Assembly (NCBI GenBank): GCA_965207685.1
Contig: OZ242294.1
Span: forward strand, 1,226,677-1,290,676
Direction of reading: 5' to 3'
DNA: 64,000 nucleotides
Source: Thermodesulfobacteriota bacterium
Lineage (GTDB): Bacteria > Desulfobacterota_D > UBA1144 > Nemesobacterales > Nemesobacteraceae
The notes beneath the pieces were generated by a model, which was not told the DNA's origin, did not search any database, and worked only from the letters and a program-made list of their open reading frames with translations. Below, piece by piece: positions 19,959 to 44,684 of the stretch (positions within the stretch are counted from its first letter, which is position 1; each line of letters opens with the position of its first letter). Position numbers and translations under genes: made by a program.

Positions 19959-19999
19959 CTTCTGACTGAGAATTATATACCAGTACCCTTCTGAAAGCT

Positions 20000-21560
20000 T
20001 AAAACAAGCGAAAAAAATAAAATCAAGTTTACTTAAATTCACGGGTTGCCTGACCGAGAGCTGCCTAATTTTACCTGTGCCATTGAGCACCTAGTTAGGA
20101 CAAGCGCCTCGGCCAGGCGCCGTGATAAATGCCCAGCAGGAAGTTCGTGCCCAAGAGCACCAGTACTGGTTCTGACAAGCATCACGGCAAACCCGAATTA
20201 AAAGGAGGTATTAGTTTACAATGAATAATCTTGAATCTCTATTTTTTGCGGGGATCGACTGGGGGAAAAGCTCCCACCAGGTCTGCGTCATTGACCCCGA
20301 AGGTTCCGTCGTCGGAGAAAAAAGCTTCAGACACACGGGAACCGGTCTTTTTGAAATGTCTCAGTGGATGAGGGAAGTATCAGGCCCTGAGAGCTGCGAC
20401 ATGGCCTTGGCCATAGAAGTGAACCACGGCCCCGTGGTGGAAAGTCTTTGCGAGCAGGGATTTATGGTTTATTCCATAAATCCCAAGCAGCTTGACCGTT
20501 TCAGGGACAGATTCTGCGTCTCTGGAGCCAAGGATGACAGAAAAGACGCCCTGGTTTTGGCCTCTGCGCTCCGCACGGACCGCAGACACTTCCGCCACGT
20601 TGAACCGCAGAATCCAGACGTCATAGTTCTGCGCGAACTCACCAGGACGAGAGAAGAACTCGTGAGAGAGCGCACGCGTCTTGTAAACCGTCTCCGCGTA
20701 CTGTTGTGGAGGTATTACCCCCAGTTCGAGGAACTTCTCGGCAGTACGGTAAGGCCATGGCACCTTGAACTGTGGGAGCTTATGCCCTGTCCTCGCGCGG
20801 CAAAAGGGAAAAGAGCCTCAACGGTACAGAAGATTCTCAAACGCAACAGGGTGAGGCGTATTGACGCCGAGGGAGCGCTCAAGATACTGCGGGCCGGGGA
20901 AATAAACGTGAGCGACGCGACCGTGAGCAGCTGCGTCTTCCATATAAGGTCGGTTGTCGAACGGTTGAAGGTGGCGGACCGTCAGCTCGGGGAAATCAAA
21001 GACTCTATAGACAAGGTTATAGTGACCATTAACGAAAAACTTAAGGCAGAAGGGAACGGGCCAACCGATATTGAGATTCTCCGCTCCATCCCCGGCGTGG
21101 GAACCGTGGTGCTCGCTACGCTTATTGCCGAGGCATGGAGTCTTGTGCGCCGTCGGGACTTCGAGGCGATTCGATGTCTCGGGGGCGTGGCTCCGGTGAC
21201 GAGACAATCGGGCAGGACAAAGCTGGTTGTCAGGAGAAGGGCTGTGTGCAGGAGCCTCTCGGCCGCGTTTCATGTTCTGGGCGGAGTGGCAGTAATCAAT
21301 GATCCGGCAAGCAGGGCAAAATACGAAGAGCTTCGGGGAAGGGGTCATGGTTACTGCAGATCCGTTCGCACCGTGTGCGACCGTCTTTTGTTCGTCGCCC
21401 GCGTCATTCTGAAAAAAGAGGAGTTGTTTGACAAGGAGCTCGGGAAACCTCTTCCGGACGCCGCGTAGTAAGGAACTATAGAGAAAAACCAGGGAGGAAT
21501 CTTAAAAAAAAGAAATTCGCTATATACATAAAATTTAAGCTTGTAAAAGACAGGAAGTCC
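20000..21560 (+). mobile_element. IS110-family insertion sequence (ends not defined; IS110 elements usually lack terminal inverted repeats)
   Basis: A single transposase gene flanked by non-coding DNA between aroA and a DUF2237 gene. The boundaries are approximate. Confidence 0.5.
20221..21468 (+). CDS. IS110 family transposase (DEDD-type)
   Basis: 415 aa. The N-terminal DEDD_Tnp_IS110 signature (GIDWGKSSHQVCVID) and the C-terminal Transposase_20 region (IPGVG...). Confidence 0.85.
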   Translation: MNNLESLFFAGIDWGKSSHQVCVIDPEGSVVGEKSFRHTGTGLFEMSQWMREVSGPESCDMALAIEVNHGPVVESLCEQGFMVYSINPKQLDRFRDRFCVSGAKDDRKDALVLASALRTDRRHFRHVEPQNPDVIVLRELTRTREELVRERTRLVNRLRVLLWRYYPQFEELLGSTVRPWHLELWELMPCPRAAKGKRASTVQKILKRNRVRRIDAEGALKILRAGEINVSDATVSSCVFHIRSVVERLKVADRQLGEIKDSIDKVIVTINEKLKAEGNGPTDIEILRSIPGVGTVVLATLIAEAWSLVRRRDFEAIRCLGGVAPVTRQSGRTKLVVRRRAVCRSLSAAFHVLGGVAVINDPASRAKYEELRGRGHGYCRSVRTVCDRLLFVARVILKKEELFDKELGKPLPDAA

Positions 21561-26838: not shown

Positions 26839-28686
26839 ATGGCATCGACGGCAAAAATACTTCAGGCCCACGAGGAAGCAAAGAGCTTTGACAGGATAAA
26901 GTCAAAGCACCTGATCGGAACCCTCTTTACCGACTTTACTCCCTGGGACAAACTCTACGGGTTCAGGAACTTTATCCACGCTCCCTCGGGTAAGAAGATC
27001 GAGTTTGTTAACGACCCCGTCGTCATAGTGGGTACGGCCGTGTTCAAGGGCACCGGGGAGGAAGTGGCCATAATAGCCCAGCAGACCCCCTCGAGCGAAA
27101 AGGAAAGAACCACGCTTAACTATGGAATGGTAAAGGCCGACGGGTACGGACTTTCTTTGTGCATGATGGAATACGCAGAGCAGAACCGCCTCAAGCTCTT
27201 CACGTTCATCGACACTGTAGGCGGAGACCCATACGAGTACTCGGCCGAAAAACTCCAGTCCTGGCTGATCTCCTACTGTCAATCGAAGATGATTTCCATA
27301 AGAACGAAAACGATAACCACCGTGCTCGGTCTCGGGGGAAGCGGGGGCGCGATCGCGATACAGCTCGGACACAAAAGGCTGATGCTCTCGCGAGCCGAAT
27401 ATTCGGTGATAACCGCCGAGGGCTGCTCCGCTATTCTTTTCAGAAGTGCGGACAAGGTCGCAGAAGCGCTTGAGGTGCTGCAGCCCACAGCGAATCACAT
27501 GAAAAAATACGGAATAATAGACGAGATAGTAAAAGAGGCCCCTCTCGGAAGAAACAATTACATCCCCTCGACCCTCAAGAACCTGCAGGCATCCCTCACC
27601 GCCACCTCGAAGGAACTTGACCGCTACGACGTAAGGCACCTGCGCGAGGAGCTGCGAAGGAAAATCGAGCTCTGCGGACAGATAAAAAAACAGCAGAAAA
27701 TCTACCAGGGAATCTCGAAAAAAATAAAAGCCTGGCTTCCTAACTACTTCAGCGGGAAAAAAGAAAATCCGGATATCTCCGAAATGCAGATAGCCATCTA
27801 CGGAGCGGAACCCCACTTCTGCAACGACGAAAAGGACGGCCAGGGGAAAATCATACGCCCCGGCTGCAAGAAACAGCTCACGAAAACAGAACTGCACGCG
27901 AACAATTCCTCGTGTCCTTACTGCAGCCGCCCCGAAGCGCTTAGTTCCGATGACTACCTGGACTTCCTTCTGGACGAGGCATCCTTCCACGAAATAGAAC
28001 CGGCCCTTTCCCTTGAGGACGTGGATTCGCTCTACAAATTCTTCAATTACTCGTCTTCGATACAGAAACTCGCCGGGAAAACCGACTCCAAGGATTCCCT
28101 CGTAACGGGCTACGGGACCATGTTCGGCATACCCGTGGCGGTGGCAGTCTGCGACTTCCGGTTCATGGGCGGGTCGATGAGTTCCGTTTTCGGCGAGAAG
28201 ATGAACAGAGTCGTCAGCTACGCCATAGAGAGCGGGCTTCCCCTTCTAACGATAACGGTAAGCGGGGGAGCCCGGATGCAGGAGGGAACCGTGGCACTCT
28301 ATCAGATGGCGAAAACCATAGCTGCAATCATGAGACTGAAGGAACACGGGCTCCCGAACATCTCCATACTCGGCCACCCGACAACTGGAGGAGCTCTTGC
28401 GAGCTACTCGGTCCAGGGAGACTTCATAATAGCAGAGAAAAAAGCGACAATCGCTTTTGCCGGAGACCGGGTTGTGAAGCTCACGAGCGGCGGACGCGGG
28501 GTCGACCCGAAAATAATGTCCTCTGAGTTCTACGAAGAACACGGAGGGGTTCACCTGGTAGTCGAAAGGAGCAAGATAAAACCTGCGATCTCGGGGCTGC
28601 TTAAATTCAGGGGCTTTAAGAACAGCCTGGACGCCGGGGCATTTCACCAACGCCCGGACGGTGGAGTTGAAGACGACTGGCTTTAG
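26839..28686 (+). CDS. acetyl-CoA carboxylase carboxyltransferase, fused alpha (AccA-like) + beta (AccD-like) subunits in one polypeptide
   Basis: 615 aa. The N-terminal half has the AccA-like FIDTVGGDPY...AE motif. The middle has a Zn-ribbon (C..C...C..C, CPYCSRPE). The C-terminal half has the AccD-like FMGGSMSSVFGEK and HGLP...GGA motifs. Confidence 0.7.
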   Translation: MASTAKILQAHEEAKSFDRIKSKHLIGTLFTDFTPWDKLYGFRNFIHAPSGKKIEFVNDPVVIVGTAVFKGTGEEVAIIAQQTPSSEKERTTLNYGMVKADGYGLSLCMMEYAEQNRLKLFTFIDTVGGDPYEYSAEKLQSWLISYCQSKMISIRTKTITTVLGLGGSGGAIAIQLGHKRLMLSRAEYSVITAEGCSAILFRSADKVAEALEVLQPTANHMKKYGIIDEIVKEAPLGRNNYIPSTLKNLQASLTATSKELDRYDVRHLREELRRKIELCGQIKKQQKIYQGISKKIKAWLPNYFSGKKENPDISEMQIAIYGAEPHFCNDEKDGQGKIIRPGCKKQLTKTELHANNSSCPYCSRPEALSSDDYLDFLLDEASFHEIEPALSLEDVDSLYKFFNYSSSIQKLAGKTDSKDSLVTGYGTMFGIPVAVAVCDFRFMGGSMSSVFGEKMNRVVSYAIESGLPLLTITVSGGARMQEGTVALYQMAKTIAAIMRLKEHGLPNISILGHPTTGGALASYSVQGDFIIAEKKATIAFAGDRVVKLTSGGRGVDPKIMSSEFYEEHGGVHLVVERSKIKPAISGLLKFRGFKNSLDAGAFHQRPDGGVEDDWL

Positions 28687-28714: not shown

Positions 28715-31700
28715 TCAGAAGTTAACCTCCCCTCTCAGCATGACTCCATGCTCCGGCTCAGCAGTATCGCTCTGCCTGCGTTCTGTCTCAAGACTCAGGC
28801 TCGCGGAGCGCCCGAGATCAAGACGGCTTCCAAGCCTGTAGTGCTGCCGCCCGTCTCCGCCGAGCCTCAGGCCGCTGTATGGAGTAAGAAGTCCGTCTCC
28901 GCCGAGAGCAGCAAGCCCATAACCGAATTCCGCGTCAAGGTGCATATCATTGCCCCCGCCATCCTCAGACGAGAGCCCATCCACTCCACGCTCCCAAAGA
29001 CTGTCAACGCCGCTTGAGGTATCTCCCCACTCAGGCGCCACGCTGAACAGCACTCCCCGCTTGTCCGCCCCCGTATCGAAGATCACGGTTCCTCCCACGC
29101 CCCACTGGCTGAACTCCTCCGAGCTGTGTGCCGCAAGCCAGCGTCCCCTGCCCGAAATGCTGAGACCCAAGCTGGGGTTCTCATAGAGGAAACCTCCTCC
29201 TATTTCGACCCCCGTTCCCGTCTCCCCGTCTCCTCCGTCATGGCGAAGCGCTACCTCGACCAAGGGATTAAACCAGGTTCCGGACGCAAACCTGTACTCG
29301 TAGCTTCCCTCCATGCTGAGACGCAGTTGGTGCACGCCGAGCGACATCTCCTCGATCATGTAGTCGTCCCCCTCAACGTCCATCCACACCTTAAACGCCT
29401 CGCTCTTTAGCGAGAAAGTCGTGTCTCCCACGTCAAACACCCTGGCGCTTCCTCCCGCCGCCACCGATTTGTAGCTTAAATCGCTTGTGGCTACCTTCCT
29501 CGCACCCTCGTCGTCTATGTCTATTTGCCCACGCCCGTAGCCAAGCGCACTCCAGAGGTAAACATCTTCCGAGAGGAACCAGGAAACATAAGGAGACACG
29601 CTCACCATCTTGATATAGTAATCGCCCCTTCCTACTTCTCCCGGCGTCGTGTCCGTATAATCGAAATCTCCCTTCGTAAGAGACAGGGAAAGTCCCGTCA
29701 ACACCTTCTCGTTAAGCCACCTGTCAACTCCCATGTAGCCGCTCACGATCCGCCCGTCCCACTTGAACCATTCGTCACTTGCGACCGAAAAATTGTTGTA
29801 ATCCGCCTTGCCCCAGAATCCGATGCTTCCTCTTCTCTCGACGATCACGGGCTTTTGATCCTCGTCAACCCACATGTTGTTATCCGCAGAATCCTCCTGT
29901 GGAGACTCTCCGACGTGTCCTTTCGGGTCTTCTTCCGGATGCTTTCCCACATAGCCGCCTGGATCTTCCTGCGGATGTTCCTTCGGTTTCCTGAGCATAA
30001 CTCCGGCCTCTATTATGAATGAAGACCCGTAAAGCAGCTCCTCGAGGCTGAGAGCTTCCCACTGGTCAGGGTCGTCCCATATATCGGTTCCAATCACTTC
30101 GTGAAGGTTCGCGTGCTGATCCATAAGTCTGAACATCCCCGTACGCTCGTATGATCCCGAAAGCACGCTGTCAAGACGCCAGGTGAGGGCGTCAACCGAA
30201 TTCCTGAGCATGGTTCGCCCGAATGTGGGAAGGATTCTCAGGCTTGCGCGCCTTGCGCGCCGGATCTCTGTAGTGTTCGCCTCGGCCGTTGCTTCGGCTG
30301 AGGGGTCCCCCGGACCTACATCGTTCACCGCGCGCACCCTGAAAGAGTATACGGTGCCGTTTTCAAGGCCCGCGACCGTGTAGCTGGTTTCATTCGTCTC
30401 CCTGGAACCGCTCTGATCTATTGAGGTCCAGCCGCCGTAAGACCCGTTTTCCTCCTTCTGGCTGTACTCGTAACCGGTGATCGGCAGACCGCCGTTATCC
30501 GCAGGCCGCTCCCATACAAGAGTCACGCGCTGGTCCCCCGGCGTCGCTGTCAGATTCCGGGGCGCACCCGGCACTGTGGCGGGCGTTGCGCTTGCTGGCT
30601 CGGAGGCGGGGCCGGGACCAACGCTGTTTACCGCCCGCACCCTGAACCCGTAGGTCTCTCCATTGGTAAGCCCCGTGACGGTGTAGGAGGTGGTCGTTCC
30701 TCCTGTTGAGATCCACTCACCGTCATCAACCTTGTATTCATAACGCTCAATGGAGCTTCCTCCATTATCAGACGCATCCCAGCTAAGAGCTACCTCTCCA
30801 TTGCCCCGTGTCGCCATCAAGTTCCGGGGCGCACCCGGTACAGTGGTAAGCGTAACGCTTGCCGGCTCGGACGCGGGGCCGGGACCAACGCTGTTTACCG
30901 CCCGCACCCTGAACCCGTAGGTCTCTCCATTGGTAAGCCCCGTGACGGTGTAGGAGGTGGTCGTTCCCCCTGTTGAAACCCATGGGCCTCCATCGATCCT
31001 GTATTCGTAGCGTCCAATGGGACTTCCTCCATTATCGGGCGCATCCCAGCTAAGAGCTACCTCGCCATTGCCCCGTGTCCCCTCCAGGTTCCGGGGCGCA
31101 CTAGGTACCGTGGCGGGGGTTGCGCTTGCCGGCTCGGACGCGGGGCCGGGACCAACGCTGTTTACCGCCCGCACCCTGAATCTGTAGGTCTCTCCATTGG
31201 TAAGCCCCGTAACGGTGTAGGAGGTGGTCTTTCCTCCTGTTGAGGTCCACTCGCCGTCATCAACCTTGTATTCGTAGTGTTCAATGGGGCTTCCTCCGTC
31301 ATCGGGCGCATCCCAATTAAGCGTTGCCCTACCGTCCCCACTCATAGCCATCAACCCCGAAGGCGCACCCGGAAGCGCCGACGACGGGACGGGATTTCTC
31401 ACCTGCGAGGGCACTTTCGTATTTGAATCCGGAGATCCATTCTCATTCACGTCGGTCACGTTGATGGTCACCGTGATGGTACCAGTCAAGCCGCCCGGGT
31501 CCCGTGCGGTAACCGTAACCGTATAAATACGCTTGGGCCCCTCGTAGTCAAGGGCCGCCTTTGTCTGTATCTGCCCGGAAGTCTGGTCTTCAAGCGCAAA
31601 GGAAGCCGCATCCGTACCCCCAAGCGAATAGGTGAGACTGCCCCGGTCACCGGAGTCCGGGTCCGTAGCTGTAACCGCCGCACCGATATCTCTTCCAGGC

Positions 31701-33679
31701 GGCGTGTTCTCCGCCACAGAACGCGTGGCCGTGTTGGGCTGGAAGTAAGGCGCATTGTTTGACGGCGGCTCTACACGCGTCACAAGGTCAGAAATTGCGT
31801 ACGCCATTTTCCCGGAACCGCGCCGGTCCGTGTAGGTCACCTTTGCCCTCAGGTAATTGTCCACATCGCCCGATACCGGCGTGTAGGCGTTGCCGTTCGG
31901 GGTCCCGCTTACCGAACCCCAGCCATTCGTCCGGCTGGTTGACTTCTCCCATGTCCACGTTTCACCCGATACTGAACCGTCGGGATCGATTAGAGTCGCT
32001 TCAAGCTCCGTACCCACCTGTGGCTGCCTGGAAGAAAGAGTCACCTCTCCCTCTTCCTCCACATCGGTCACATTAATAGTCACCGTGGTCGTAATTTCCG
32101 AGGTCCTGTCCGTGACTTTAACCACCACGCCCGCATAAGAACTTTTGGTCTCGTAGTCAAGAGGCGCCTTGGTCTTTATCTGCCCGGAGGAATCAATATC
32201 AAATGAAAGTTTAGATACATCATCGAGCGAGTAGATAAGTGTTTCGTTTTCCGGGTCCGTAACCGCAATCGGTGTCCCGATGTCTACTCCAGGCCCCGTG
32301 TTCTCAGCCACAGAAAACATGTCCGGTGGGGGATCAGGATCAAAATAGGGCGCCCAGTTTACTGCCGGCACCTTTCCAGCGGACTCCGCCTCCGCGCTTT
32401 TATCAGGACCGTGGCCATCGGTATAGGAGGCCACCGCCCGCAGGTATTTATCTTCATCGTCTTCAACATTCGGGTCGCTGTCGGCAACCGGCGTGTAGGT
32501 TGCAGTCGTGGAACCGCTGCTCGTGGCACCGGTGATCGGATTCCAGTTGGTTTTGTCAGCTGACCTATACCATGTCCACTCCACATCCGTTATAGAACCG
32601 TCAGGATCAGTCAAAGTCGCAGTCAGCTCCTCATCTATTGCCAGCGTGCCGGACAGGGTCACCGTTCCAGGCTGATCTGGAGGAGGTACGCCTTCCGTCG
32701 TCGCGCTTGCTATGTTTGAAGGATCGCTTGTGCCCTCGGAGTTAATAGCAGAAACCTGGTAATGCCGCGTGTCTCCGGGAGAAAGACCGCTATGTGTATA
32801 CGTCGTGTCTGTATTGCCAGTGTCGTCTTCAAGATTCGTCCAAGAATAATTTGGGGGACCAGATGTTGAGACCTCGATTTTGTAGCCTTCCACGTAGGAG
32901 TTGGGAGCGCGCCACTTAAGCACAATCATGCTCTGCCCTTTAGGTTCCGCTTCCAGGTTCCTAGGCGGATCCGGAGCAGTGATGGAACAGACAACTCCCG
33001 CGTGTTCGAAGCTTCTGCAATTATGGGTGCCGACAGGAGTAGTAGACTGCCCAGCGCCCCTAGGACAATCAATCAGCCTCGTTTCAGTGCCTACGCAGAG
33101 AATATCGTCAAGCCAGAATTCATTGTTAGTCTTGTAGTCGCCCTTGGAAGAATCGATTATTGAAGGGCCGTCAAGCTCTAGCAGCGTCTTCGCGAATTCC
33201 GGCATATAATCCGAATGCTGACCACCTGTATCCTTCAGCTGCTTGCACGCGATTTCTGCGTCTTCGTCGGTGAAATAGTCATCGCATATTCCTCTCCACT
33301 CGGCATCGGTACCGTCATTATAATAAACTTCAAGCCTGCCTATGTCGGCCGTGACCGTACAGCTACTCGTGTTCGTGGTATCGCACAATCGAAGATCCCC
33401 GTTGCTCTGCGCATGCGCAGTTACGGAGAAAAACGCCAGCGGCAACAGTACTGCCAGCAGAAAGCAGACCCTGTCTCTCAGGCTTTCTGTTTTCCCAAGA
33501 AAGGGCGGCGGACGCAGAAACCCCCGCCCCTTCAGACAAAAGAGCGTTAACAGGGTTTCAAGTGCCTTGGTTTTTGCCCGGTTCGGGACTGGCTCAGTCT
33601 TTCTCTCGTCCGGATACGGGGACAAGAGGGATTTTCGCTGGCGCTCTACCGAAGAGACAAGCCGTTTATGTTCCACCAT
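28715..33679 (-). CDS. giant cell-surface protein: signal peptide, SRCR-like domain, FN3, 2x(Ig-like + cadherin repeat), 4x FN3, C-terminal autotransporter-like outer-membrane beta-barrel
   Basis: 1654-aa ORF. The hydrophobic signal segment LLAVLLPLAFFSVTAHA lies ~70 aa into the ORF, so the true start codon is uncertain. The SRCR consensus blocks are GRLEV.YNDG..WRGICDD, FWLDDILCVGTE..L.DCP and HNC...EHAGVVCS. The cadherin-like blocks are VAEN..PG..IG..V.A.DPD...L.YSL...FAID..SG.I.T...LDYE. Four FN3 repeats follow (WDAPDNGGSPI..YEY....GLTNGETY.FRVRAVN). The C-terminal ~520 aa are beta-rich and end in ...RGEVNF. Confidence 0.8.
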   Translation of the reverse strand: MVEHKRLVSSVERQRKSLLSPYPDERKTEPVPNRAKTKALETLLTLFCLKGRGFLRPPPFLGKTESLRDRVCFLLAVLLPLAFFSVTAHAQSNGDLRLCDTTNTSSCTVTADIGRLEVYYNDGTDAEWRGICDDYFTDEDAEIACKQLKDTGGQHSDYMPEFAKTLLELDGPSIIDSSKGDYKTNNEFWLDDILCVGTETRLIDCPRGAGQSTTPVGTHNCRSFEHAGVVCSITAPDPPRNLEAEPKGQSMIVLKWRAPNSYVEGYKIEVSTSGPPNYSWTNLEDDTGNTDTTYTHSGLSPGDTRHYQVSAINSEGTSDPSNIASATTEGVPPPDQPGTVTLSGTLAIDEELTATLTDPDGSITDVEWTWYRSADKTNWNPITGATSSGSTTATYTPVADSDPNVEDDEDKYLRAVASYTDGHGPDKSAEAESAGKVPAVNWAPYFDPDPPPDMFSVAENTGPGVDIGTPIAVTDPENETLIYSLDDVSKLSFDIDSSGQIKTKAPLDYETKSSYAGVVVKVTDRTSEITTTVTINVTDVEEEGEVTLSSRQPQVGTELEATLIDPDGSVSGETWTWEKSTSRTNGWGSVSGTPNGNAYTPVSGDVDNYLRAKVTYTDRRGSGKMAYAISDLVTRVEPPSNNAPYFQPNTATRSVAENTPPGRDIGAAVTATDPDSGDRGSLTYSLGGTDAASFALEDQTSGQIQTKAALDYEGPKRIYTVTVTARDPGGLTGTITVTINVTDVNENGSPDSNTKVPSQVRNPVPSSALPGAPSGLMAMSGDGRATLNWDAPDDGGSPIEHYEYKVDDGEWTSTGGKTTSYTVTGLTNGETYRFRVRAVNSVGPGPASEPASATPATVPSAPRNLEGTRGNGEVALSWDAPDNGGSPIGRYEYRIDGGPWVSTGGTTTSYTVTGLTNGETYGFRVRAVNSVGPGPASEPASVTLTTVPGAPRNLMATRGNGEVALSWDASDNGGSSIERYEYKVDDGEWISTGGTTTSYTVTGLTNGETYGFRVRAVNSVGPGPASEPASATPATVPGAPRNLTATPGDQRVTLVWERPADNGGLPITGYEYSQKEENGSYGGWTSIDQSGSRETNETSYTVAGLENGTVYSFRVRAVNDVGPGDPSAEATAEANTTEIRRARRASLRILPTFGRTMLRNSVDALTWRLDSVLSGSYERTGMFRLMDQHANLHEVIGTDIWDDPDQWEALSLEELLYGSSFIIEAGVMLRKPKEHPQEDPGGYVGKHPEEDPKGHVGESPQEDSADNNMWVDEDQKPVIVERRGSIGFWGKADYNNFSVASDEWFKWDGRIVSGYMGVDRWLNEKVLTGLSLSLTKGDFDYTDTTPGEVGRGDYYIKMVSVSPYVSWFLSEDVYLWSALGYGRGQIDIDDEGARKVATSDLSYKSVAAGGSARVFDVGDTTFSLKSEAFKVWMDVEGDDYMIEEMSLGVHQLRLSMEGSYEYRFASGTWFNPLVEVALRHDGGDGETGTGVEIGGGFLYENPSLGLSISGRGRWLAAHSSEEFSQWGVGGTVIFDTGADKRGVLFSVAPEWGDTSSGVDSLWERGVDGLSSEDGGGNDMHLDAEFGYGLAALGGDGLLTPYSGLRLGGDGRQHYRLGSRLDLGRSASLSLETERRQSDTAEPEHGVMLRGEVNF
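30545..31350. repeat. three tandem near-identical ~267-270 bp units (each encoding one FN3 domain) inside the giant surface-protein gene
   Basis: Near-identical ~110-nt stretches (GCCGGCTCGGACGCGGGGCCGGGACCAACGCTGTTTACCGCCCGCACCCTGAA...) recur at about 30596, 30861 and 31128. The ORF track also shows duplicated frame-shifted peptides at 30495-30716 and 30783-30983. Confidence 0.8.
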
Positions 33680-33900: not shown

Positions 33901-33962
33901 TGTAGGGGGTCAATTAAAATGTCCGTTTTTTGAGTTAATTAGTTGTCCGGTTTGGTTTTCTT

Positions 33963-34002
33963 CAAATCAGCCTCGAAGGGCGAGCCCGAAGAGGCTGATT
34001 TG
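33963..34002 (-). terminator. perfect 12-bp stem / 16-nt loop hairpin just downstream of the transposase stop, inside the IS
   Basis: CAAATCAGCCTC-(16 nt)-GAGGCTGATTTG read directly from the sequence. No obvious T-tract follows, so its function as a terminator is inferred. Confidence 0.4.
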
Positions 34003-34013
34003 AAACCGTCTCC

Positions 34014-35207
34014 TTACCCCGTCGCCATCTTCCTTCTCTGTTCAGTTTCTTCCACGAGATTCCCTTCCCTGTCATAAAACCCCAGCCTGCGTTTCCCTTC
34101 ATGAAACACCCCTATGCTCCCATCCTCGTACTCATGCACCGCAACCTTCGCCCTCACGAAGTGATAACGATCCTTAACCGGCGGGATCTGCAAACTCATA
34201 CCCCTGTACCTGACACAATTGTCGTTGCCCACTGCCCTTGTGTGCTTAAGACACAGTATGTCATCCAAACCCACTCCGAGCAGCGGTACGAACGCACTGC
34301 CTTCCTCAGCCGCCGCTACCGCGAAACGCCCGTTGAAATCCCCTATAAAACTCTCCGAGAGAAACCTGTTCGCCTCCTCCATATCCTCTATACCCCTCTC
34401 CTCCAACTCCACAGGCAACCGCCCCTGCAACGTCTTGAACATCCTCTCGCTTCGCCCCCTTGCCTCAGGGGAGTATCCCGGAATCATTAAAACGCCCAGC
34501 TCGGCCATCGCTCTTCCAAACTGCGTGGGATTCTCCTTGTCAACCCGCCCCCCGGCCCGGGGAGTACTCCAGTAATGAGACCCTCTGTCACTGTAGAAAC
34601 TTGAGAATATGCCCTCACTCTCCAATACCTCCCGCACACCCCTCATGCTGCTCTGTGTGCCCTCCTGGGCACAGAAGAAAGCACTGTATATCCGCCCCGT
34701 GGCGTCATCCATGGTCACTACAAGGTCCCACACCTCCCGGGGAACCCACCTGTGAGTGCTCGCATCCTGATGTATCATCTCCCCCTCTCGCTTCTTGCGT
34801 TCCCTCAGCTCCCGGTGCGGCCCGCGGCGGCGCCCCCTGGGAACCGCTCCCGCATCCTGCAGACACCTCTTAACCCAGCTGTAGCCGCGGGTGCCCCCGT
34901 GGCGCTCTGTGTATGCCTCGTAGAAATGCCTTATGTTACGATTCGGATAACAACCCATGTATAGCTCCACTACCTCCGAAACCTCCTGCGGTGAAGCACG
35001 CCGAGGTGATGTCCTGCCCAAGCGCTTGTCCGAAAGTCCTTGTCTTCCCCACGCTTCGTAACGAACCACGTAGCGGCGGAAGGTCCTCTCGCTCATCTCA
35101 AGCTGCTCCCCGGCTTCTGCCTGGGTGAACTCCCTCTGCTTCCATCTGTTGTATACAGACTCAAACCGGTTTGCCCTGACCATCTGCAAATACCTTGACT
35201 GATCCAT
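34014..35207 (-). CDS. DDE transposase (N-terminal HTH + rve/integrase core)
   Basis: 397 aa. HTH region (LEMSERTFRRYVVRY) and DDE residues in the contexts IHQDAS, VTMDDAT and SPEARGRSER. Confidence 0.8.
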   Translation of the reverse strand: MDQSRYLQMVRANRFESVYNRWKQREFTQAEAGEQLEMSERTFRRYVVRYEAWGRQGLSDKRLGRTSPRRASPQEVSEVVELYMGCYPNRNIRHFYEAYTERHGGTRGYSWVKRCLQDAGAVPRGRRRGPHRELRERKKREGEMIHQDASTHRWVPREVWDLVVTMDDATGRIYSAFFCAQEGTQSSMRGVREVLESEGIFSSFYSDRGSHYWSTPRAGGRVDKENPTQFGRAMAELGVLMIPGYSPEARGRSERMFKTLQGRLPVELEERGIEDMEEANRFLSESFIGDFNGRFAVAAAEEGSAFVPLLGVGLDDILCLKHTRAVGNDNCVRYRGMSLQIPPVKDRYHFVRAKVAVHEYEDGSIGVFHEGKRRLGFYDREGNLVEETEQRRKMATG

Positions 35208-35312
35208 CTCTACCTCCTCGTTCTCCAGAGGAAATAAATCTAGTCAACCACTGCCTCTACAAACCGGACAACTAATTAACTCAAAAACCGGTCATATAAC
35301 GTACTCTCTACA

Positions 35313-40579: not shown

Positions 40580-40809
40580 TGAAAAAAGGATTTAGCAGGC
40601 AGATGTATTAATTGTTGAGCTTAGAAGAACCCACGAGCTTATGGCAAAGTCCGTTAGGCAAATTTAACGAGTTAAACATCTTACAACCATTTTAAAAGGC
40701 ACATCTTTCTGCGGATATATTATGTATATTTATATATTGACATTATTTATTATTACGTATATATATAACTATACGATGAATCTATTTGCATAGCCATTGA
40801 GGATATACA
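40580..40809. other. AT-rich non-coding segment (islet boundary / promoter region of the mobile mystery protein pair)
   Basis: Sharp drop in GC (e.g. TATATATTGACATTATTTATTATTACGTATATATATAACTATACG) relative to the flanking genes. Confidence 0.4.
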
Positions 40810-41271
40810 ATGAGTGTTAAAACGATTATTACGAGACAGTATCGCGAAAAGCTTAACCAAGCCGCTTTGAAGTTTCAGAATTTCACCCTACCTTCTGAAG
40901 GCTGGATTCGTACAGCCAGAAAAGCTCTTGGCATGTCTGCGGCGCAACTGGCCCGCCGTCTGGGAAAAACCCGAGCACTTGTCTCTAACACAGAAAAGGC
41001 CGAGCTTGACGGTAGAGTGACTTTAAAAACCATGCGGTCCATGGCGGAGGCGGCAAATTGTCGTTTCGTTTATGCTTTTGTACCAGAAGAAAGCGTAGAA
41101 ACCATCATCAGGCAGCGCGCCAGAGAAAAAGCCAAGCAACGCGTGATGGAAGCCTCTAGCCACATGGCACTTGAACAACAAACTATTTCTCAAAGCCAGA
41201 TCGAATTTGAAATAGAACGTCTTGCAGAAAACATTCTCAGAGAACGGCCAGGCTATTTGTGGGACGACTAG
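40810..41271 (+). CDS. mobile mystery protein A (XRE-type HTH; TIGR02612-like)
   Basis: 153 aa. HTH (LGMSAAQLARRLGKTRALVSNTEK) and a C-terminal region typical of the protein A partner of Fic-family protein B. Low GC. Confidence 0.75.
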   Translation: MSVKTIITRQYREKLNQAALKFQNFTLPSEGWIRTARKALGMSAAQLARRLGKTRALVSNTEKAELDGRVTLKTMRSMAEAANCRFVYAFVPEESVETIIRQRAREKAKQRVMEASSHMALEQQTISQSQIEFEIERLAENILRERPGYLWDD

Positions 41272-41280
41272 AATCCAACA

Positions 41281-41871
41281 ATGATGAACCATTCAACAGA
41301 AGATACAATGTCGCTTGATCCCGATGAGGTGCGAGGCCTAAAATTCAAGCACATAACGACGCGGAGCGAACTGAATCATCTGGAACAAGCCAACATCCAA
41401 AGCGGCATAGCATGGATGCGCCAAAGCAGACGCACTGACCTGCTGTCGGAAGGTTACGTATGTCAACTGCATAGACGTCTGTTCGGCGAAGTCTGGTCAT
41501 GGGCAGGGACATTTCGTCATACAGGCAAGAATATCGGGGTTGACCCACTCTATATTGCCGTAGAACTGCGCACACTGCTTGACGACATGAAATATTGGTT
41601 CAACAATGAAACCTATCCGCCGCGCGAAGCGGTAATCCGCTTCCATCATCGTCTGACGGCAATTCATCCCTTTCCCAACGGCAACGGTCGTCATGCCAGA
41701 ATCATGGCGGACGCACTGCTCATCAAATTGTACAAACTACCAACCATAGACTGGGCCGGAGGCCATGATCTCGCTTCTATGAACAGCAGGAGAAAAACCT
41801 ACATTCAGGCGTTGCAAGCGGCGGATAGAGGCAATTACGAGCCCCTGCTCGCATTTGCGGGTATCAGGTAA
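41281..41871 (+). CDS. mobile mystery protein B (Fic/Doc family; TIGR02613-like)
   Basis: Canonical Fic motif HPFPNGNGRHAR (HxFx(D/N)GNGRxxR), 196 aa. Immediately downstream of protein A. Confidence 0.8.
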   Translation: MMNHSTEDTMSLDPDEVRGLKFKHITTRSELNHLEQANIQSGIAWMRQSRRTDLLSEGYVCQLHRRLFGEVWSWAGTFRHTGKNIGVDPLYIAVELRTLLDDMKYWFNNETYPPREAVIRFHHRLTAIHPFPNGNGRHARIMADALLIKLYKLPTIDWAGGHDLASMNSRRKTYIQALQAADRGNYEPLLAFAGIR

Positions 41872-42034
41872 TCAGGTTGATTGGGATACAATAAAAAACC
41901 TGAGTATACCGCCCGTAAAAGTTCTTCTCGATATTGGAACTCACCCTGTCTTTTGGTAGCAAAACTGATTTGTTAACCTCGCAAGATTCCTGATTCGTCA
42001 CCGCCAGCAGAATCTAGGAAACAAGTCACAGGCG

Positions 42035-42967
42035 TCACGGATTCCCCGTTCCTCGGGATGTGCTTCTGAGGGCCTTCTTCAAGTACCCGTCGTTTTCCAG
42101 TAGTAGTTCGACGGACTCTTCAGGCGAGAGACCAACGAGTTTCATTACCACGGCAACCTTGAGATTCCCGTCGGCTTCCCGCAAAAGCGAGGCAGCTTCT
42201 TCTTCCCCCACGCCACATATGTCCATTATGATTCTTCTTGACCTGTCAACAAGCTTCGAGGAAGTGGGCTTAAGATCAACCATCAGGTTTCCGTAAGTCT
42301 TCCCGAGAAGCACCATCGCGGTCGTCGTAACCATGTTAAGAACCATCTTGGTAGCGGTAGCGGCCTTGAGTCTCGTGGAACCCACTATCACTTCAGGGCC
42401 GACAAGAAGGGTTATGACCAAGTCGGCGGGGACGTTCTCCGGCTCGCTGCAGCATACAAGTATGCTTGCGCAGCCAACCGTGCGGGCGTACTCGAGGGCG
42501 GATATCACAAACGGCGTGCCGGAACTTGCCGCGATTCCCAGGACCACGTCGCACTCTGAGAGTTTTTTGTCACGGAGGGCTTCCACGGAAGCCGTAGGGG
42601 AATCCTCAGCTCCCTCGACCGAGTTCCATACCGCATCCCGCCCTCCCGCCATAACCGCCTGCACCGTCTCGGGGTCCGTTCCGAAAGTAGGCGGGCATTC
42701 GGCAGCTTCCATCACCCCGAGCCGCCCGCTTGTTCCCGCCCCGACGAAAAAAACCCTGCCGTTGCTCTCAAGGGAGCGGAAAACCATTTCCGCCGCCTGG
42801 GAGATTGAATCTTTTTCTCTGGAAACAGCCTCAAACGCCGCCTGATCTTCCCCGCTTATAAGATCGATGATCTCAGAACATGAAAGTTCATCGATACTAA
42901 CCGTCCTCGGGTTTACTTTCTCTGTGAGCAGGTGTCCTGTCCGGCGAGTCTTCTCCACAGGAAACAT
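42035..42967 (-). CDS. murQ: N-acetylmuramic acid 6-phosphate etherase
   Basis: SIS domain (VGAGTSGRLG) and MurQ-like length and layout, 310 aa. Confidence 0.85.
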   Translation of the reverse strand: MFPVEKTRRTGHLLTEKVNPRTVSIDELSCSEIIDLISGEDQAAFEAVSREKDSISQAAEMVFRSLESNGRVFFVGAGTSGRLGVMEAAECPPTFGTDPETVQAVMAGGRDAVWNSVEGAEDSPTASVEALRDKKLSECDVVLGIAASSGTPFVISALEYARTVGCASILVCCSEPENVPADLVITLLVGPEVIVGSTRLKAATATKMVLNMVTTTAMVLLGKTYGNLMVDLKPTSSKLVDRSRRIIMDICGVGEEEAASLLREADGNLKVAVVMKLVGLSPEESVELLLENDGYLKKALRSTSRGTGNP

Positions 42968-43132: not shown

Positions 43133-43245
43133 CTCACTGCCCAAAAACTGTATTTATTCCGGTCATCACGTTAATATCAAATTTGCCCAGTTTCTATTGA
43201 TAATTTGACCTGAGTTCTATTGACAATTTCACCCTTTTTGATAAT

Positions 43246-44559
43246 GTGTTCAGAAAATTATACGGAGAAAAAACGGTGTCTGAACAAGAAGAGATTTTAC
43301 CGCGTCATTTGTCGACGAAACTCGATAAGGCCCTAGATTCGGCAAGAATAGTAAACATTGTAGGTCCTAGACAGGCTGGAAAAACTACATTGGTACGGGA
43401 TTTGCATAAAAACGGCAGATTCATCACGCTTGACGACGAATCAATGCTCATGGCTATAGAAAACGATCCTGGCGGACAACTCGAAAGCCTGACGACTGGA
43501 CTAGAGACGGAACCTCTGATAATTGACGAAATCCAACGCTCAAAGGGGCTAGTTCTGGCGATCAAAAAGAAAGTCGACGGCAATCGCCGTAAAGGTCAGT
43601 TTATCCTGACGGGTTCTTCAAATATTTTCATGTCCCTTGGAGTCGCCGACTCCCTGGCCGGCCGAATGAGAGTGCTCAAGCTATGGCCGCTGACTGTCTC
43701 GGAAATCAGGAAGCGAAACCCTTCGAGGATACTGACGTGGGCCTTGCGGCCTGCACCGAAACTCGCCGCGCTACCAACACCTGAAAAAACGGACCGTAAG
43801 TCTTACATCGACATAATTCTGCGAGGCGGCTTCCCGGAAATTTTCCCCTTGGAGGCAGAAGAACGGCAAGAATATTATCGGGACTATGTTGACGCCATTG
43901 TGGACAGAGATGTGGCCGACGTTCTTCCCGTACGGAAAACGGATGCCCTCCGACGACTTATCAATCAACTGGCCGTGAGAACCGCTATGGAGTTGAACCT
44001 CTCTGAAATCTGCGAACTGGTCGGCGTTCAACGTAACACGCTTGAGCAATACCTCGAGGTGCTCTTGCGCCTGTCCGTGGTAAACAGGCTGGGAGCATGG
44101 GCGTCGGGCGAATCTAGGCGAGAAATCAAAAACGCAAAAAACCACTTTGTAGACACGGGGGTCGCCTGCGCTCTACGCAGACTGACATCCGAGAGTTTTC
44201 ACGCGGACGCAAATCCAGCTGCATTAGGTGGTCTGCTCGAAAGCTTCGTCTATTCAGAGTTGCTACGTTCAGTTCCGTATCAGGATCAGAATTTTCACTT
44301 TTATCACTGGCGAGACAGTCGCGGACGCGAAATAGATATTGTGGCTGAATCCGCAACTCGACTGATCTGCATCGAAGTGAAGGCTTCAACCACGATCTCG
44401 CCTCAGGATTTGAAGCACCTCAAGTGGTTTGCGAAAAAAGGGCCTGGAACCACCAGAGAAGTGATAGGCTTGGTATTTTATCTCGGCCAAGAAAAGCTCA
44501 GCTTCGGAAACGGCATCTTCGCTCTGCCGGTCAGCATACTGTGGAGCACCGTGTCTTAA
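43246..44559 (+). CDS. AAA+ ATPase with DUF4143 C-terminal domain
   Basis: Walker A GPRQAGKTT, Walker B LIIDEIQ, 437 aa. Confidence 0.75.
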   Translation: MFRKLYGEKTVSEQEEILPRHLSTKLDKALDSARIVNIVGPRQAGKTTLVRDLHKNGRFITLDDESMLMAIENDPGGQLESLTTGLETEPLIIDEIQRSKGLVLAIKKKVDGNRRKGQFILTGSSNIFMSLGVADSLAGRMRVLKLWPLTVSEIRKRNPSRILTWALRPAPKLAALPTPEKTDRKSYIDIILRGGFPEIFPLEAEERQEYYRDYVDAIVDRDVADVLPVRKTDALRRLINQLAVRTAMELNLSEICELVGVQRNTLEQYLEVLLRLSVVNRLGAWASGESRREIKNAKNHFVDTGVACALRRLTSESFHADANPAALGGLLESFVYSELLRSVPYQDQNFHFYHWRDSRGREIDIVAESATRLICIEVKASTTISPQDLKHLKWFAKKGPGTTREVIGLVFYLGQEKLSFGNGIFALPVSILWSTVS

Positions 44560-44684
44560 GAAAATCCTGTTCAAGCATGAAAATTGGAAATCTTCCTTCC
44601 AATTTTCCATGCTTCTTCAAGGATAGGGAAAAGACCAGATTGCATTAATTGCCGTGCTCGGGCGGAAGCTTCGGAATCACCTAC

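Follow-up and report, generated by a model that had tools for sequence, protein, structure and literature searches.

Three tandem FN3 units in a predicted autotransporter adhesin of a Thermodesulfobacteriota bacterium and their variation in number between orthologues

Introduction

In the alpha C and Rib proteins of group B streptococci, in-frame repeats of domain length are homogenised by gene conversion and are gained and lost by unequal recombination. Bacterial surface proteins of variable length have been described as Periscope Proteins, with SasG/Aap, Sgo_0707 (SHIRT), Rib, Esp and CdrA as examples, and the screen used to find them took repeats of more than 50 residues with at least 80% protein identity (Whelan et al. 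2021, PNAS, PMC8201768). Proteins with eukaryote-like adhesion domains, such as cadherin and FN3 (fibronectin type III), were reported to be enriched in sponge symbionts (Robbins et al. 2021, ISME J, PMC8163846). Here we describe a tandem array of three FN3 units encoded in a stretch of 64,000 nucleotides (the window; contig OZ242294.1 of assembly GCA_965207685.1, positions 1,226,677 to 1,290,676) from a Thermodesulfobacteriota bacterium. The three units, together with a diverged fourth FN3 domain, probably make up the part of the passenger nearest to the membrane in a classical (type Va-like) autotransporter adhesin of the Dadabacteria/Thermodesulfobacteriota, in which the number of units has been changed by recombination. 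The array is a putative Periscope-like stalk of a variable-length adhesin with intragenic concerted evolution, a real but fairly ordinary case.

Like the Periscope Proteins (PMC8201768), the protein described here carries tandem whole-domain repeats of more than 50 residues between an anchor and a putatively adhesive region at the far end, and the repeats are similar at the DNA level and differ in number between related strains, with intragenic recombination as the likely route. It differs from them in that the repeated domain is FN3, the anchor is a predicted autotransporter barrel, the array holds 1–5 units and the source is an uncultured Dadabacteria-type metagenome-assembled genome (MAG); moreover, the role as a stalk is deduced here from domain order alone, with SRCR and cadherin domains distal and FN3 beside the barrel. 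The idea of the variable-length stalk is thereby extended to an uncultured phylum and to a design of FN3 units and autotransporter. Compared with the alpha C and Rib proteins the homogenisation is partial: it covers a core of 110 nucleotides (nt), while the 5′ halves of the units keep two ancient unit types. With the sponge-symbiont proteins (PMC8163846) the locus shares cadherin and FN3 domains in Dadabacteria, a lineage regularly recovered from sponges; that study differs in counting domains per genome and makes no mention of autotransporters or SRCR, and no description of intragenic repeat variation was found in it. As an instance of recombination that adds, removes and partly homogenises the domain repeats of a surface adhesin, the array is a clean but expected example.

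Results and discussion

Three in-frame FN3 units with a nearly identical core

Tandem Repeats Finder detected one tandem array between 28 and 34 kb of the window, at 30555–31315, with a period of 267 nt, 2.9 copies, 87% matches and 0% indels. Gapless extension gave three copies of 300 nt, starting at 30537, 30804 and 31071 and ending at 31370, with a spacing of 267/267 and 83–86% identity to the reference copy. The array is located inside an open reading frame (ORF) of 1654 codons (28715–33679) on the minus strand, the strand of all features of this gene given below. Its period corresponds to exactly 89 codons, in frame, and no spacer separates the three units. In the register of the domains, the first unit, u1 (31103–31369; amino acids (aa) 771–859), is a 'type 1' FN3 and the second, u2 (30836–31102; aa 860–948), a 'type 2' FN3, both delimited by Tandem Repeats Finder, extension and a hidden Markov model (HMM) of the unit. 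The third, u3 (30569–30835; aa 949–1037), is a mosaic, as revealed by alignment of informative sites and sliding identity.

Pairwise identities in this register were 79.0% nt and 71.9% aa for u1–u2, 83.9% nt and 82.0% aa for u1–u3, and 86.9% nt and 84.3% aa for u2–u3, against a baseline of 25.8 ± 3% for random 267-nt pairs from the same gene. The similarity was not spread evenly. The best 110-nt windows between the unit pairs, at about nt 138–251 of the unit, matched at 106/110, 105/110 and 108/110 positions, and the longest exact runs were 58, 41 and 95 nt, a clustering of mismatches that was significant under random placement (P = 2.5e-5, 0.017 and <5e-6, respectively). The homogenised 110-nt core lies at 31125–31234 in u1, 30858–30967 in u2 and 30591–30700 in u3. 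Its GC content is 0.648, compared with 0.568 for the remainder of the units and 0.538 for the whole window, a difference that amino-acid content or biased gene conversion might explain, and an 83-nt probe from it gave three matches in the window versus 0 expected, all of them in the array. An earlier note on this DNA had described three tandem coding repeats of about 267 bp with nearly perfect stretches of 110 nt, each unit encoding one FN3 domain, and this description was borne out. Its figure of more than 90% identity over about 270 bp was overstated, since we measured 79–87% nt and 72–84% aa; in the register of that note the pairs were 81.3, 84.6 and 87.3% identical at the nt level.

Pfam fn3 matched the 1654-aa protein in five stretches (E 2.2e-64, 214 bits versus a cut-off of 25; best match aa 772–853), and every unit of the array was matched. 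In single-domain alignments, one repeat unit matched FN3 domains in the PDB from titin and from LAR-type receptor phosphatases, with E down to 1e-14.

The number of FN3 units differs between orthologues

Unit counts were obtained with an HMM built from the three window units and run on 27 family proteins and 12 DNA loci. Most members of the family, including L005, L006, L007 and L012, have a single unit of the 89-aa type. Two units were found in L003, L004, L008 and P0010, three in the window, L002, P0017 and P0021, four in L014 (P0003) and five in L013 (P0042), where the reading frame shifts between units 4 and 5, on a contig of 5x coverage. The window was compared with its closest chromosome (L002, below called the sister chromosome) and with L012 (P0002), an allele from the same sample as L002. 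Outside the array the gene is 92.5–96% identical among these three. Within it, L012 is shorter by exactly 534 nt (2 × 267) and has one unit versus three. Thus the comparison of copy number among related genomes, proposed in the earlier note as a check, gave the outcome expected from that note, with a range of 1–5 units at a conserved locus.

Arrays with other periods were observed at the same place in the gene. L014 contains an array with a period of 270 nt and 3.4 copies, and L015 (3472–4404) an amplification with a period of 303 nt, 3.1 copies and 98% identity, whose repeated segment reaches from the last part of a repeat-type FN3 into the first part of the diverged fourth FN3, the D unit. 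This 303-nt array is an independent and very recent amplification. The occurrence of 267-, 270- and 303-nt arrays at one site indicates that gain and loss of domains has been repeated there, in different registers. Among the arrays of the relatives, that of L013 (4625–6233) showed 92% matches. For L003 and L007 the protein match exceeds the longest open frame in length; these two copies and that of L013 are possibly pseudogenes or carry consensus errors. The L015 genome has an IS110 transposase upstream of the adhesin gene. No match was found when JGI metagenome contigs were scanned with a 41-nt core pattern.

Variation of this kind could be real and yet neutral, with FN3 units gained and lost by chance and their number devoid of function beyond providing a long enough passenger. 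We hold this to be possible but doubtful. Most orthologues work with one unit, the window and the sister chromosome both have three despite a divergence of about 5%, and the number of cadherin modules upstream, 2–4 across the family, varies without high DNA identity, which suggests a general modular drift; yet at least three independent amplifications (in registers of 267, 270 and 303 nt) have taken place at one membrane-proximal site, the arrays reach 4–5 units, and the frames have been kept in all but one low-coverage contig. Repeated amplification, arrays of 4–5 units and kept frames would fit selection for length, although they fall short of proof.

The units carry traces of recombination

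Alignment of the units from different genomes revealed two types. Type 1 (…APSGL…GDG…LNW…IKYYEY…) stands first in most genomes, and type 2 (…APRNL…RGN.EV.LSWD…IERYEY…) occupies the later positions. The window u1 is closest to u1 and u3 of the sister chromosome (88.8–89.1%; 88.8% to u1), and the window u2 is 94.0% identical to its u2. The third units differ: u3 of the sister chromosome is a 99.6% nt copy of its own u1, and the window u3 is a mosaic in which nt 1–95 are u2-like, nt 96–135 and the last ~25 nt are u1-like, and the shared core lies between. In the 110-nt core, units of the window are 94.5–97.3% identical to each other and those of other multi-unit genomes 80–88%, compared with a mean of 77–79% between genomes. 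Outside the core, the identity within a genome (64–80%) is no higher than that between genomes (74%). Neighbour-joining gave a corresponding result. With the 5′ 135 nt, the units were split by type across genomes, the exceptions being L008_u1 and L013_u1 in the type-2 clade, and with the core they grouped by genome or lineage. The array is a case of partial concerted evolution, in which gene conversion has homogenised the core of an old duplication. The proposal of the earlier note that recombination adds and removes domains and so varies the length of the protein gained support from the 1–5 units of the orthologues, from the copied u3 of the sister chromosome, from the mosaic u3 of the window and from the clustering of the cores by genome.

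A nearly identical core might also result from a strongly constrained protein or DNA sequence, the units being old duplicates among which gene conversion played no part. The core does encode the most conserved FN3 strands (…YTVTGLTNGETY.FRVRAVN..G.G…), a protein sequence that is conserved across genomes as well. Synonymous sites, however, showed only 2–3 differences in 37 codons between the cores within the window, versus 7–15 between genomes, and the identity of 94–97% within the genome versus a mean of 77% between genomes, as well as the grouping of the core tree by genome and of the 5′ tree by type, is contrary to this explanation. We rejected protein-level constraint as the sole cause on the synonymous sites and regard constraint in general as improbable.

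It is likewise most improbable that the array, its copy number or the order of its units arose in assembly, through collapse or expansion of copies or through the joining of co-occurring strains into a chimera. Identical stretches between units reach 95 nt, related strains with different unit numbers do co-occur in one sample, and the array of one relative has a frameshift on a 5x contig; against this, each unit of the window has private substitutions (13–21% pairwise difference), u3 is no splice of the window's own u1 and u2, since its u2-like first ~95 nt are only ~87–93% identical to u2, the ORF is intact over 1654 codons, and the closest chromosome matches it in length and in the layout of three units (u1–u1 88.8%, u2–u2 94.0%). 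Assembly collapse is therefore largely rejected, given that every unit can be told apart and that the sister chromosome agrees, and a wrong copy number in the window assembly, a risk raised in the earlier note, looks unlikely from these comparisons. Phase variation by slipped-strand mispairing, as at a simple-sequence contingency locus, was rejected because the unit of 267 nt is 89 codons long and any in-register change keeps the frame.

The array belongs to a predicted autotransporter

The ORF at 28715–33679 encodes a predicted autotransporter-type surface protein of 1654 aa, defined by the ORF list, its translation, Pfam matches and an orthologue of the same length that is 93% identical (P0001). 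The domains follow each other in the order extension, signal peptide, SRCR, FN3, twice an unnamed domain with a cadherin, u1-u2-u3, the D unit, linker and barrel. Since u1-u2-u3 stand near the C-terminal barrel in this order, the repeated FN3 units would form the membrane-proximal part of the passenger. A predicted translocator occupies the C-terminal part (28718–30271; PF03797, TIGR01414), with a linker of ~150 aa (29819–30271) and the Pfam match to the beta-domain at 29216–29818. When the C-terminal 509 aa were scanned alone, PF03797 was matched with E 1.6e-8 (35 bits versus a cut-off of 26), and the autotrans_barl model TIGR01414 gave 20.4 bits versus a cut-off of 16 in the C-terminal part. 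With a beta-domain above the curated cut-offs of two libraries, the earlier assignment of the gene to a surface protein is well supported as a prediction. The C-terminus of the protein (...MLRGEVNF) has an aromatic last residue.

A search with the last 380 aa (HMMER, 1.84 billion cluster representatives) detected 7263 relatives at E<=1e-3 and 2290 at E<=1e-30. Among the best 150 of the 7263 (325–7178 aa), the match lay nearly always at the C-terminal end of the relative itself. Of ten relatives sampled, nine carried PF03797 above the cut-off (29–58 bits), and the passengers of the sampled relatives were unrelated to each other, with Calx-beta, Big_9, cadherin-like and peptidase domains. A putative C-terminal barrel shared behind unrelated passengers is the pattern that autotransporters show. 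Most characterised type Va passengers are beta-helices. The protein thus resembles the classical type Va autotransporters (PF03797/TIGR01414) in its predicted signal peptide, long passenger and C-terminal beta-domain with an aromatic end, and in the thousands of relatives that share the barrel with unrelated passengers. It differs in its passenger, a chain of small domains of the Ig-like/beta-sandwich and SRCR kinds, and its barrel is too distant from those of the solved type Va autotransporters for a sequence match.

The N-terminus begins with an extension of 65 aa (33485–33679), which is conserved among family members and has no Pfam match. The extension is basic (MVEHKRLVS.V.RQRK…), many family members have it with in-frame indels, and some gene callers placed the start of the orthologues downstream of it. 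Some autotransporters have extended signal peptides, of which this 65-aa extension is reminiscent. A probable Sec signal peptide, read from the sequence as SLRDRVCFLLAVLLPLAFFSVTAHA before QS, follows at 33410–33484 (aa 66–90), with an n-region of basic residues, then a hydrophobic core and AHA ahead of QS (…RDRVCFLLAVLLPLAFFSVTAHA, then QS). The most distal domain of the passenger, an SRCR domain (32984–33340; aa 114–232), matched PF00530 with E 9.3e-13 / 1.6e-14 and 49–54 bits versus a cut-off of 26.1. The solved proteins most closely related to it all come from animals (CD163, neurotrypsin, MARCO and DMBT1). The domain has eight cysteines and, compared with the ~100-aa model, an insertion. 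No description of an SRCR-bearing bacterial autotransporter was found in the searchable literature, which is weak evidence of absence, and an exact-sequence look-up of the 1654-aa window protein matched no record.

A diverged N-terminal FN3 outside the array was recognised as a Pfam fn3 stretch (32684–32965; unit-HMM score 29). It is followed by two modules of ~205 aa (31439–32671; the first at 32054–32671 and the second at 31439–32053), each consisting of an unnamed domain in its first ~100 aa and a cadherin. Pfam PF00028 identified the two cadherin domains with E 3.9e-25. The two modules are 48% identical at the aa level and are also visible as diverged DNA repeats spaced 594–621 nt. The two unnamed domains that precede the cadherins have no Pfam match; they share the motif …TATLTDPDGS…W.W.RS…YTP…YLRA.A.YTD…G…. 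On the other side of the array, unit alignment defined the D unit (30272–30568), an FN3 of 99 aa with an insertion (unit-HMM score 70), within which a 55-nt remnant of the repeat is present at 30289–30343.

A possible mechanism and the role of the FN3 run

Exact runs of homology of 41–95 nt are ample for homologous recombination of the RecA type. Because the units are exactly 89 codons long and share such runs, in-register recombination between them would keep the reading frame. Unequal crossing-over between units would add or delete whole FN3 domains, and gene conversion would copy sequence from unit to unit and homogenise them, with RecA-type recombination as the probable machinery. Products of both kinds, changed unit numbers and copied units, occur in the relatives. 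An FN3 domain is a beta-sandwich a few nanometres long, and the number of units next to the barrel should therefore change the reach of the SRCR and cadherin domains. In this way the FN3 run may act as a spacer that sets how far the distal SRCR/cadherin domains project from the outer membrane, and a change in copy number could give surface proteins of different length.

The variation, with one versus three units among alleles that are 92.5–96% identical outside the array and 1–5 units across the family, is of the kind described for the Periscope Proteins, and so are the three tandem units of 89 aa without a spacer. The u1–u3 (82.0%) and u2–u3 (84.3%) pairs also lie above the 80% aa identity used in that screen. 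The arrays of relatives are closer still (99.6% nt between u1 and u3 of L002, 92% matches in L013 and 98% in L015).

Several points weigh against the reading of the array as the recombining, membrane-proximal stalk of an autotransporter adhesin. The u1–u2 pair, at 71.9% aa identity, falls below 80%, and the units, 72–84% identical, are less alike than those of the textbook variable-length adhesins. Most family members have one unit and the two closest full genomes both have three; the unit number may change slowly rather than as a rapid switch. The copy-number variation is a difference observed between genomes and between alleles. As to the barrel, an AlphaFold2 model of the C-terminal 518 aa from an alignment of 20 sequences had a mean predicted local distance difference test score (pLDDT) of 27.8 and a predicted template modelling score (pTM) of 0.23, was unusable and was discarded. 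No solved autotransporter in the PDB matched the C-terminal domain by sequence or profile, the hits obtained, among them Fab heavy chains at E>0.1, being due to chance. With an unusable model and no match to a solved structure, the barrel is assigned from the profile matches alone.

A wider proposal can be put forward tentatively. In sponge-associated Dadabacteria the gene might encode an autotransporter that is inherited vertically throughout the lineage and whose animal-type SRCR, cadherin and FN3 domains bind or mimic the matrix or receptors of the host, and recombination among the FN3 units and cadherin modules might tune its reach and so adapt a strain to its host. We consider this proposal possible but doubtful, and the window genome is only a candidate for a sponge origin. 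More unusual than the array itself is the protein around it, an SRCR/cadherin/FN3 autotransporter at a conserved locus of a lineage common in sponges, with animal proteins as its closest solved relatives, and it may interest researchers on symbiosis. Since the locus varies between strains, it could be used to separate co-occurring strains in metagenomes; long reads are needed to assemble it correctly.

The locus in related genomes

The closest relative, P0001, is 93% identical, is also 1654 aa long and is encoded on a 1.52-Mb chromosome (Thermodesulfobacteriota bacterium MAG OZ219814.1). Another six loci belong to MAGs of Thermodesulfobacteriota or Candidatus Dadabacteria of 0.9–1.9 Mb. Wherever the neighbours were visible they were constant, with the adhesin gene between a gene for a Fer4 protein and one for a fused acetyl-CoA carboxylase carboxyltransferase. 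The same neighbours at each visible locus indicate that the genes are orthologues at a conserved locus. In the window, the gene downstream of the adhesin gene (26839–28686, plus strand) encodes a protein of 615 aa with ACCA and Carboxyl_trans domains, a fused alpha/beta acetyl-CoA carboxylase carboxyltransferase, and it adjoins the adhesin gene in the relatives too. The Sanger sponge genome notes describe PacBio HiFi metagenomes assembled with metaMDBG, Dadabacteria MAGs included. As the contig names ctg522297l (the closest chromosome) and ctg810097_18x_l are of metaMDBG form, we infer that the relatives are PacBio HiFi long-read assemblies from sponges.

The sister chromosome is 94–96% identical to the window over 25 kb apart from stretches of the window that it lacks. 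The adhesin gene is 93.5% identical between the two versus 94–96% for the flanking 20 kb, and on these values we rejected the notion that the adhesin is unusually divergent against near-identical flanks.

One of the stretches that the sister chromosome lacks, at 33901–35311, is an insertion sequence (IS)-like element. Its terminal inverted repeats of 36 nt (33919–33954 and 35260–35295) are 94% complementary, and it encodes a 397-aa helix-turn-helix (HTH) protein (34014–35207, minus strand) with matches to HTH_28/29/32 and a weak match to an IS481 leucine zipper. A stretch of 17 nt in the sister sequence that matches both flanks of the element may represent a target duplication. The edge of the element lies ~220 nt upstream of the start codon of the adhesin gene, a position from which it could affect expression of the adhesin. 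Three further stretches of the window are missing from the sister chromosome: 19982–21558 contains an IS110-family transposase (20221–21468), 40601–42038 a gene pair of HTH_3 and Fic/DOC (40810–41871), and 43134–44681 an ATPase of the AAA_14/DUF4143 type (43246–44559).

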